A DNA stretch of 45,825 nt from Escherichia coli (GTDB lineage: Bacteria > Pseudomonadota > Gammaproteobacteria > Enterobacterales > Enterobacteriaceae), in NCBI RefSeq assembly GCF_003334765.1, contig NZ_QOWT01000032.1; one strand, written 5' to 3'. The notes under the pieces are model-generated. The model was not told the origin of the DNA. It made no database searches and was given only the letters and a program-made list of their open reading frames with translations. Positions 5,295 to 9,964 of the stretch are shown here, in pieces (the stretch's first letter is position 1; every line of letters begins with the position of its first letter). The position numbers and the translations under genes were made by a program.

Positions 5295-6388
<1,094 letters not shown>

Positions 6389-6484: not shown

Positions 6485-6514
6485 GTAAAAATTTATGGGC
6501 CTGGAGCGGCCCAT
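6485..6514 (-). terminator. Rho-independent terminator downstream of ybgE (bidirectional-looking)
   Basis: Hairpin atgggcc-tggagc-ggcccat (6495-6514) flanked by T-runs on both strands. Confidence 0.6.
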
Positions 6515-6537
6515 AATTTTTTAAAGAGAATTCTGAT

Positions 6538-6831
6538 TTAAAAGAAGAAGAAAATCAGCCCGACAATGAGAACAATATCGGCAAGCAATGGGCAAAAAAT
6601 CCCTTGCCAAAGAACCTTCTGCGGACGAAAGCCCACGCCGTGAATCACACCAGCACAGACGGCCCACATCAGCAATAAACCATGCCAGATTTCCAGTTCA
6701 CTGGTCTTCGCGGCAAAACGAGATGGGTCCCAAAACATACATCCTGCTAACAGAAGCGCCATCACGAAGGAAAGCGCCCGCAGGGGGCGCTTGTCCATTA
6801 CCGCATACAAAGTCGCGATAATCTTACTCAT
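6538..6831 (-). CDS. ybgE: Small inner-membrane protein YbgE, cyd operon member
   Basis: 97-aa hydrophobic ORF immediately downstream of cydX. Confidence 0.9.
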   Translation of the reverse strand: MSKIIATLYAVMDKRPLRALSFVMALLLAGCMFWDPSRFAAKTSELEIWHGLLLMWAVCAGVIHGVGFRPQKVLWQGIFCPLLADIVLIVGLIFFFF

Positions 6832-6944
6832 CAGATGTCTTCTTGACCGGCTTTGCCTGATTCGACGTGTTCAAGCGCCAGCGCGGTGATTACCCCAAAC
6901 GAACAGGCAAGAAGCGTTCCCAGAATCCATGCGAAATACCACAT
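6831..6944 (-). CDS. cydX: Cytochrome bd-I oxidase accessory small subunit CydX (37 aa)
   Basis: Not in the ORF track. Minus-strand ATG at 6942-6944 preceded by AGGAG; translation MWYFAWILGTLLACSFGVITALALEHVESGKAGQEDI; stop overlaps ybgE start as TGATG. Confidence 0.9.
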   Translation of the reverse strand: MWYFAWILGTLLACSFGVITALALEHVESGKAGQEDI

Positions 6945-6958
6945 TTTTAGCTCCTTAC

Positions 6959-8098
6959 TTAGTACAGAGAGTGGGTGTTACGTTCAATATCTTCTTTGGT
7001 GATACGACCGAACATTTTCCAGTAACACCAGGCGGTGTAGAGCAGAATGATCGGTACCAGAACCACCGCAACCCAGGTCATGACGTTAAGCGTCAGCTGG
7101 CTGGAAGTTGCATCCCACATTGTCAGACTTGCGTTCATCATGGTGCTGGACGGCATCACAAACGGGAACATTGCGATACCGGCTGTCAGGATGATGCAGG
7201 CCAGCGTCAGGGAGGAGAACACAAACGCCCACGCGGCTTTATCCATACGTGCAGTCAGGATGGTCAGCAGCGGCAGAACCACACCCAGTGCCGGAATAGC
7301 CCACAGAATTGGCGTGTTGTTGAAGTTAACCAGCCATGCGCCAGCTTCACGAACCACTTCTTTATTCAGTGGGTTAGAGGCTGCGTAATGGTCCATTGTC
7401 GATTTCACGACATAACCATCGATACCGTACATCACCCATACGCCAGCCAGTGCGAAACAGACCAGTGTCACCAGCGCAGCCACCTGAGCCGTTGCACGGG
7501 TACGCAGGTGCAGTTCGCCCACGGTACGCATTTGCAGATAGGTTGCGCCCTGAGTAATGATCATCCCTACGCTCACCACGCCTGCCAGCAGGCCGAACGG
7601 GTTAAGCAACTGGAAGAAGTTACCGGTGTAGTACAGACGCAGATATTCATCAACGTTGAACGGTACGCCCTGCAACAGGTTACCGAACGCTACACCAATT
7701 ACCAGCGGCGGAACGAAGCTACCAATGAAGATGCCCCAGTCCCACATGTTACGCCAGCGGGTTTCTTCAATCTTGGAGCGGTAGTCAAAACCGACCGGAC
7801 GGAAGAACAAAGACGCCAGCACGAGGATCATCGCCACATAGAAGCCGGAGAACGCAGCGGCATAGACCATCGGCCAGGCAGCAAAGAGTGCGCCGCCCGC
7901 GGTGATCAGCCAAACCTGGTTACCGTCCCAGTGTGGTGCAATGGAGTTAATCATAATTCGACGCTCGGTGTCGTTACGACCGAGGAAACGGGTGAGCATG
8001 CCCACCCCCATGTCGAAACCGTCAGTGACTGCAAAACCAATCAGCAGAACGCCAACCAGCAGCCACCAGATAAAACGCAATACTTCATAATCGATCAT
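6959..8098 (-). CDS. cydB: Cytochrome bd-I ubiquinol oxidase subunit II
   Basis: 379-aa polytopic membrane protein. Confidence 0.96.
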   Translation of the reverse strand: MIDYEVLRFIWWLLVGVLLIGFAVTDGFDMGVGMLTRFLGRNDTERRIMINSIAPHWDGNQVWLITAGGALFAAWPMVYAAAFSGFYVAMILVLASLFFRPVGFDYRSKIEETRWRNMWDWGIFIGSFVPPLVIGVAFGNLLQGVPFNVDEYLRLYYTGNFFQLLNPFGLLAGVVSVGMIITQGATYLQMRTVGELHLRTRATAQVAALVTLVCFALAGVWVMYGIDGYVVKSTMDHYAASNPLNKEVVREAGAWLVNFNNTPILWAIPALGVVLPLLTILTARMDKAAWAFVFSSLTLACIILTAGIAMFPFVMPSSTMMNASLTMWDATSSQLTLNVMTWVAVVLVPIILLYTAWCYWKMFGRITKEDIERNTHSLY

Positions 8099-8113
8099 TT
8101 GACGACTCCTGTC

Positions 8114-9682
8114 TTAGCGTGCCGGCTGAGTAGTCGTGGAAGACTGCTCAAAGTGATAGCGACCGGTTTTCAGGCTGCTTGGGCCGAGGCGTGCAAACTT
8201 GAACATTAAGAACAATTCTGCCACCAGGAACAGGGTATACAGGCCGCAAATCAGCACCATTGAGAAGATGAGATCGCCTGCGGTCAGTGACGAGTTCGCC
8301 ACAGCTGTCGGCAGCACTTCACCGATAGCCCACGGTTGGCGGCCATATTCAGCCACGAACCAGCCCGCTTCTACAGCAATCCACGGCAGCGGAATACCGT
8401 ACAGCGCGGCGCGCAGAAGCCATTTTTTCTCGCCAATGCGGTTGCGGATGACACTCCAGAAAGAGAGCGCGATGATTGCCAGAAGCAGGAAGCCACACGC
8501 CACCATGATACGGAACGCAAAGTACAGCGGCGCTACACGCGGGATGGAGTCTTTGGTTGCCTGTTGAATCTGCGCTTCAGTCGCATCAGCCACGTTTGGC
8601 GTATAGCGTTTCAGCAGCAGACCGTAACCGAGGTCTTTCTTCATGCTATTGAACTGGTCACGAACCGCCTGGTCGGTAGAACCAGAACGCAGTTGTTCGA
8701 GCAGAGAGTACGCCTTCATCCCGTTACGAATGCGTTCTTCATGCTGCACCATCAGCTCTTTCAGGCCGATAACCGGGGTATCCACGGAACGCGTTGCAAT
8801 GATGCCCAGTGCGTAAGGGATCTGAATCGCAAATTTGTTCGTCTCCTCTTCCTGATCAGGAATGCCGAACAGAGTAAAGGCAGCAGGCGCAGGTTGCGTT
8901 TCCCACTCGGCTTCAATAGCAGCCAGTTTGGTTTTCTGCACGTCGCCCATTTCGTAGCCGGATTCATCACCCAGAACAATAACAGACAGAACAGCAGCCA
9001 TACCGAAGCTGGCAGCGATAGCAAAGGAGCGTTTAGCGAAGGCGAAGTCACGACCTTTCAGCATATACCATGCGCTGATACCGAGGATGAACATCGCGCC
9101 AGTCACATAACCAGACGCTACAGTGTGAACGAATTTCACCTGAGCAACCGGGTTAAGCACCAGCTCGGAGAAGCTCACCATCTCCATACGCATAGTTTCA
9201 AAGTTGAAATCGGACGCGATTGGGTTTTGCATCCAGCCGTTCGCAACCAGAATCCACAGTGCGGACAGGTTTGAACCGAGCGCCACCAGCCAGGTGACAC
9301 ACATATGCTGAACTTTACCCAGACGATCCCAACCGAAGAAGAACAGACCTACAAAGGTGGATTCGAGGAAGAAGGCCATCAGACCTTCGATTGCCAGCGG
9401 CGCACCGAAGATATCCCCTACATAGTGGGAATAGTAAGACCAGTTAGTCCCGAACTGGAACTCCATGGTCAGACCGGTAGCCACACCCAGAGCGAAGTTG
9501 ATACCAAACAACTTGCCCCAGAACTTGGTCATATCTTTATAAATCTGTTTGCCGGAGAGGACGTAGACCGTTTCCATAATGGCCAGCAGGAACGCCATAC
9601 CGAGCGTCAGTGGCACAAAAAGGAAGTGGTACATCGCGGTCAAGGCAAACTGTAAGCGCGACAGTTCGACTATATCTAACAT
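8114..9682 (-). CDS. cydA: Cytochrome bd-I ubiquinol oxidase subunit I
   Basis: 522-aa protein [20 protein letters not shown]...; start set at the second Met of the ORF. Confidence 0.96.
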
Positions 9683-9964
9683 CATGACTCCTTGCTCATC
9701 GCATGAAGACTCCGAGAGTGAACCCCGTTAGAAAGGGTCACACGCATGCCCCAATAGAAATTTGTTTGAACACTTTCATCATACCATGTGAATGCACACA
9801 AAAACGGCGTAAAGAAAGGTTGCAAACATGTTAATAAAAACTCAAATTGATCCCACGTATATATTACGCCGCAAAATCCTTACAATAAACAGGTTTTTGT
9901 TGAAGCAAATTTGCATTTTTCGACGGTGATCAATTTATAGCTAAATTACCGCCTTTCAGCCAAT

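Follow-up and report, generated by a model that had tools for sequence, protein, structure and literature searches.

The 37-codon open reading frame (ORF) on the minus strand at positions 6831..6944 of the window (the whole 45,825-nt stretch of Escherichia coli DNA that was analysed) is with certainty cydX (earlier name ybgT), which stands third in the E. coli operon cydA-cydB-cydX-ybgE. Its 37 codons, closed by a TGA stop, encode subunit X of cytochrome bd-I, a single helix. This is a known gene: it is annotated, and its product has been purified, mutated and resolved by cryo-EM. Comparison of sequences across related loci further suggests that ybgE would be translated mainly through termination-reinitiation from cydX, a reading that we favour as somewhat probable. 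The junction pattern behind it (a conserved stop/start overlap, a ybgE that lacks a Shine-Dalgarno (SD) sequence as long as the overlap is present, and an SD-like site when a repeat insertion splits the pair) was not found in the literature searched, and it provides a cheap, testable handle on YbgE expression and on whether YbgE is tied to the oxidase in its stoichiometry. A known cydX together with coupling of ybgE to it is, taken as a whole, very probably the best explanation of this region.

Background

CydX is needed for oxidase activity, and its deletion results in bd-deficient phenotypes (PMC6005532, PMC4325964). In the enzyme it is a single helix packed on CydA transmembrane (TM) helices 1, 4, 5, 6 and 7, and stable assembly of bd-I needs it (PMC8951039). 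YbgE is absent from the bd-I structures, and no solved YbgE structure was found.

Comparative loci

Loci for comparison were collected using a 12-sequence YbgE alignment. The best 80 were kept, with 97 further confirmed genome hits outside the set, all 80 from different species and nearly all from Enterobacteriaceae, plus Erwinia; with the E. coli reference they make up the 81 loci referred to below. Distant lineages were sampled via eight exact-protein YbgE look-ups, seven of which were informative and one (L085) too short.

Identity of the open reading frame

The ORF runs on the minus strand from an ATG at 6944-6942 to a TGA at 6833-6831, and its 37-aa product is MWYFAWILGTLLACSFGVITALALEHVESGKAGQEDI. 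This peptide is identical at 37/37 positions to chain X of PDB entry 6RKO (E = 8.9e-22), and through that identity it is a single TM helix bound to CydA. It is also identical to chains in eight further PDB entries, 6RX4 among them. The NCBIfam equivalog model for CydX, TIGR02106, scores it at 70.7 bits (cut-off 31.6), and Pfam PF08173 (YbgT_YccB) matches with E = 1.9e-14. The earlier note, made from the sequence alone, had recognized a single-TM peptide matching CydX and had suggested alignment to CydX orthologs as a check, and both the model score and the structure chain bear it out. RefSeq gives E. coli cydX (WP_000270282.1) the same boundaries, with ybgE beginning on the final cydX base, and the surrounding 701-nt region was found in 5426/5426 complete E. 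coli genomes at at least 95% identity. As is characteristic of CydX, which is encoded by an ORF of about 30-40 aa, the small ORF follows cydB on the same strand, 14 nt past its stop codon. A cydX ORF likewise follows cydB and precedes ybgE in 81/81 loci, and the gap to cydB, measurable in 80 of these loci, spans 13-17 nt.

Residues 1-28 of CydX are near-invariant across the 80 species, the exceptions being S15A, V or I at position 18 and a few others. The C-terminal tail differs between loci in both sequence and length, giving peptides of 32-38 aa among the 81 loci, in keeping with published work in which removal of the final six residues had no apparent effect.

That cydX is missing from the ORF track, as the earlier note also had it, could be reproduced with a list made at the 60-aa default, in which cydB and ybgE are listed and the 37-aa cydX is omitted; it does not extend to public annotation, where RefSeq carries the gene. 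The omission is due to the length cut-off and implies no gap in knowledge, although it does illustrate that length-thresholded ORF tracks can lose real, functionally required small proteins.

Organization of the cyd operon

All four genes of the operon lie on the minus strand. The first, cydA (8114..9682), encodes bd-I subunit I, 522 aa as annotated in a RefSeq coding sequence of 1569 nt. The second, cydB (6959..8098; RefSeq), encodes the 379-aa subunit II and scores 867.9 bits with NF011579. The last, ybgE (6538..6831; RefSeq), encodes a 97-aa cyd operon protein of family PF09600 that scores 185.2 bits with NF007881 against a cut-off of 116. The spacings from each stop codon to the next start are 15 nt for cydA-cydB, 14 nt for cydB-cydX and -1 nt for cydX-ybgE, in agreement with the back-to-back arrangement that had been read from the sequence. 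In RefSeq the gene order is mngB, cydA, cydB, cydX, ybgE, ybgC, tolQ, tolR, tolA, tolB. A second stop/start overlap in the window, of 4 nt, lies between ybgC and tolQ (5984..5987, minus strand).

The start of cydA contains two adjacent ATGs (9682..9687, minus strand). The mechanical ORF begins at 9685 and is 523 aa long, and NF011677 matches it with 1179.1 bits over residues 2-523 of 523. RefSeq and NF011677 both fit the second ATG (9682, 522 aa). The AAGGAG upstream has a 4-nt spacer to this ATG, compared with a spacer of just 1 nt to the first.

Scanning of the minus strand from the cydB start to the ybgE stop revealed no terminator-like site. An intrinsic-terminator-like hairpin is present at 6493..6516 (minus strand), beginning 21 nt past the ybgE stop, with a 9-pair stem that includes five G-C pairs and is followed by ATTTTT; this is likely to be the end of a cydABX-ybgE transcript. 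In published transcriptome tables cydA, cydB, ybgT and ybgE (or cydAB and cydX-ybgE) change together.

Upstream of cydX, the SD sequence TAAGGAG occupies 6951..6957 (minus strand), 6 nt 5' of the ATG; it contains, at 6955-6951, the AGGAG from which the earlier note had proposed that the minus-strand ATG opens a 37-codon ORF, and start, SD and ORF are all present as proposed. Its duplex with the 3' end of 16S rRNA (-8.4 kcal/mol) is the strongest among the four operon genes. Over the 81 loci, the best 80 plus E. coli, the corresponding value averages -8.4 kcal/mol with a range of -9.3 to -6.6 kcal/mol, and TAAGGAG occurs in all twelve of the commonest cydX upstream sequences listed for these loci.

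The junction between cydX and ybgE

The cydX TGA (6833-6831) and the ybgE ATG (6831-6829) share one base, so that the junction reads TGATG (6829..6833, minus strand), as the earlier note had described. The best anti-SD duplex for ybgE in the window has an energy of -3.3 kcal/mol, and its pairing stops 13 nt 5' of the ATG. The pair thus has two features of coupled genes, namely a stop codon that overlaps the downstream start and a downstream gene that itself has no effective ribosome-binding site. Since ybgE has no SD and one base is common to its ATG and the stop codon of cydX, we read the junction as one of reinitiation. Translation of cydX proceeds from its own strong, conserved TAAGGAG 14 nt past the cydB stop. 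In the proposed mechanism, ribosomes finishing at the cydX TGA would reinitiate on the overlapping ybgE ATG and account for most ybgE translation, and YbgE synthesis would thereby be tied to CydX synthesis.

The main alternative holds that free 30S subunits initiate ybgE independently at an unstructured, A-rich start, and that the 1-nt overlap reflects compaction with no mechanism attached. The mRNA around the junction does contain no significant structure (z = -0.32), so the ybgE start would be accessible. The same value led us to reject masking of the ybgE start by mRNA secondary structure, which is therefore needless as an explanation. Overlaps of 1 or 4 nt are also common in bacterial operons, ybgC-tolQ with its -4 being an example at hand, so that the cydX/ybgE overlap could be mere compaction.

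Set against independent initiation is the conservation of the junction. A 1- or 4-nt stop/start overlap is kept in 76/81 loci, as T(G/A)ATG in 73 and as ATGA in three. It survives changes of stop codon (TGA in 51, TAA in 23 and TAG in one of the 75 overlapping junctions from other species) and, in the same 76 loci, CydX lengths of 32-38 aa and changes in the tail sequence. In those 75 overlapping junctions the anti-SD duplex of ybgE averages -3.4 kcal/mol, compared with -8.4 kcal/mol for cydX, and just two reach -6 kcal/mol or stronger. In the remaining five loci an insertion separates cydX from ybgE, and in 5/5 an SD-like site of -5.8 to -11.4 kcal/mol stands at the displaced ybgE start. The difference in anti-SD strength between overlapping (75) and split (5) junctions has a Mann-Whitney p of 1e-4, a value that is uncorrected for phylogeny and in which the five split junctions are probably only two or three independent insertion events. 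Conservation of the overlap, lack of a ybgE SD and the presence of SD-like sites where the overlap is broken together favour coupling, and independent initiation is rather unlikely.

Among the distant lineages, the called junctions in seven YbgE contigs (30-64% identity) measure -1, -1, -11, +68, -17, +1 and -4 nt, that is, an overlap or at most 1 nt between the genes in 6/7. Close apposition of cydX and ybgE therefore reaches well beyond Enterobacteriaceae. The seventh contig (L086:1432-1501) has ybgE as called 68 nt past cydX with no SD (-3.0 kcal/mol); it speaks for independent initiation and is a counter-example to the pattern of an SD when the genes are separated, although its start may be miscalled. 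In another distant cyd locus (L088:1401-1499), a 32-aa hydrophobic ORF, MLYVVWVVGVLLAIFASAKLTIGKEKAGKFDE, occupies the position of cydX. This ORF follows a strong SD, stops 1 nt short of ybgE and has no Pfam hit on record, and its product is probably a divergent CydX-like subunit.

The literature searched contains no experiment showing that ybgE translation depends on cydX translation. A kanamycin cassette placed between cydX and ybgE caused no growth or beta-mercaptoethanol phenotype (PMC6005532). The lack of a bd-I phenotype in this disrupted junction is in line with independent initiation; for the coupling that we prefer, it means that such coupling, if real, is dispensable for bd-I activity under those conditions.

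A stricter form of the coupling can be put forward only tentatively from these alignments. In it, ybgE would depend strictly on completion of cydX, the dependence would be selected across Enterobacterales and beyond, and after a break in the overlap by an ERIC or other repeat insertion ybgE would survive only with a substitute SD. If strict dependence were true, there would be a selected ratio of CydX to YbgE synthesis, and such a ratio would point to YbgE as an assembly or accessory factor of bd-I.

Insertions that split the junction

Four of the split loci carry a repeat of approximately 130 nt just inside the 5' end of ybgE. They come from Raoultella terrigena, Enterobacter sp. 10-1, a Proteobacteria MAG and Citrobacter sp. 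MGH106, and the repeats lie at L017:2377-2506, L080:2377-2506, L030:1088-1217 and L055:2368-2503. We assign the insert to the ERIC repeats on the basis of multi-copy matches in unannotated stretches of E. coli genomes and of its agreement with primer sites. In 3956/5426 E. coli genomes, between one and six unannotated sites match the repeat. The ERIC1R and ERIC2 primer sites match the inserts of L017 and L055 at 17/18 to 20/20 bases, and the insert of L030 matches well at the ERIC1R site only. No Rfam family matching the inserted repeat was found.

The ERIC insertion disrupts the cydX/ybgE overlap, and its 3' end brings both an SD-like site and a new ATG, so that YbgE now begins with the new sequence MIKYIYA... 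The SD-like site is AAGGAGG (-11.4 kcal/mol) in L017 and L080 and AAAGAGG (-5.8 kcal/mol) in L030 and L055. The fifth split locus, from Intestinirhabdus alba (L057:2396-2500), contains a different insert of approximately 100 nt between cydX and ybgE that is GC-rich, hairpin-forming and REP-like. Here TGATG has become TGACG, and ybgE begins from a new ATG after GGAGG (-10.0 kcal/mol).

Predicted proteins of 131-135 aa that contain both CydX and YbgE Pfam domains (P0002-P0005, P0012 and P0018) occur in metagenome- or SRA-derived assemblies. In the E. coli-like ones the frameshift falls after CydX residue 25, 30 or 34, and most form single-contig clusters. A conserved CydX-YbgE fusion or a programmed frameshift was rejected on these grounds; the varied frameshift points and single-contig clusters indicate sporadic indels or assembly or sequencing errors.

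A sigma-54 motif within cydX

ChIP-seq of sigma-54 has reported an intragenic site within cydX, IS08, 82 nt 5' of ybgE (PMC4591121). We located its motif, TGGGAACGCTTCTTGCC, at 6906..6922 of the window on the minus strand, where it covers cydX codons 8-13 and is oriented toward ybgE, in the sense direction. A promoter of its own at this site could drive ybgE, and since the transcript would start past the cydX start, translation of ybgE would then be independent of cydX. Beyond the reported binding and orientation, the evidence runs against this possibility, which we regard as very improbable. Among the PMC4591121 sites compared, IS08 ranks lowest, with a motif score of 6.849, and most sigma-54 sites look transcriptionally inactive according to the same paper. 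The transcriptome tables show cydX-ybgE regulated along with cydAB. The GG and GC of the motif core fall on the first two positions of the conserved codons for Gly9 and Ala13. The one core base that is free to vary, at the third position of Leu12, is retained in 30/45 distinct sequences, within the range of other third positions. Conservation of IS08 is thus attributable to coding constraint, and selection on the site was rejected because conservation of this free base does not exceed that of other third positions. We saw no sign in these comparisons that IS08 is selected or drives ybgE expression.

Coding evidence for cydX

Among 79 related loci, the variable columns in the first 28 cydX codons number 10, 1 and 25 at codon positions 1, 2 and 3, respectively. 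Codon differences from the window comprise 532 synonymous and 117 non-synonymous changes, at a median nucleotide identity of 87%. This codon-position pattern and the synonymous excess argue that the ORF is not due to chance. Manual curation of E. coli and Salmonella Ribo-seq data marks cydX as translated (PMC8921622); cydX is absent from the main text of a bioRxiv start-site profiling paper. The earlier note had made its case depend on ribosome occupancy or a protein product, and the record holds both, the former in the Ribo-seq curation and the latter in the cryo-EM structures. That the 37 codons are a chance ORF without translation, a notion with short length and nothing else in its favour, is vanishingly improbable and already refuted by the same peptide resolved in nine PDB entries, by the strong coding substitution pattern and by the curated Ribo-seq data. 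A mechanical ORF of 426 aa on the plus strand (6929..8209), antisense to all of cydB and overlapping the cydX start, has no support, and the codon-position pattern favours the minus-strand frame over it.

Comparison with known systems

The ORF does not differ from E. coli CydX (YbgT; chain X of 6RKO and 6RX4) in sequence, length, place directly after cydB or RefSeq annotation. To be distinguished from it is AppX/CbdX, the small subunit of bd-II (NF011333; 7OSE chain C and 7OY2 chain X), a paralogous single-helix peptide. AppX/CbdX resembles CydX in its N-terminal motif MWY..W..G.LL.CS, in a gene placed after that of subunit II, and in the binding place on subunit I (PMC8951039). However, the window peptide matches 7OSE chain C weakly (E = 0.015), and it was ruled out as CbdX/AppX with 21.7 bits in NF011333 against a cut-off of 57. 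The flanking genes are likewise of the bd-I type, as their scores with NF011677 and NF011579 lie above the cut-offs and those with the bd-II models NF011609 and NF011602 fall below them.

Termination-reinitiation at UGAUG or AUGA junctions is classically represented in E. coli by trpE-trpD and trpB-trpA. The cydX-ybgE pair resembles these in its UGAUG overlap, in a downstream gene without an SD and in conservation of the overlap. It differs from them in that its upstream ORF, with 37 codons, is uncommonly short and in that the dependence of ybgE is one that we infer.
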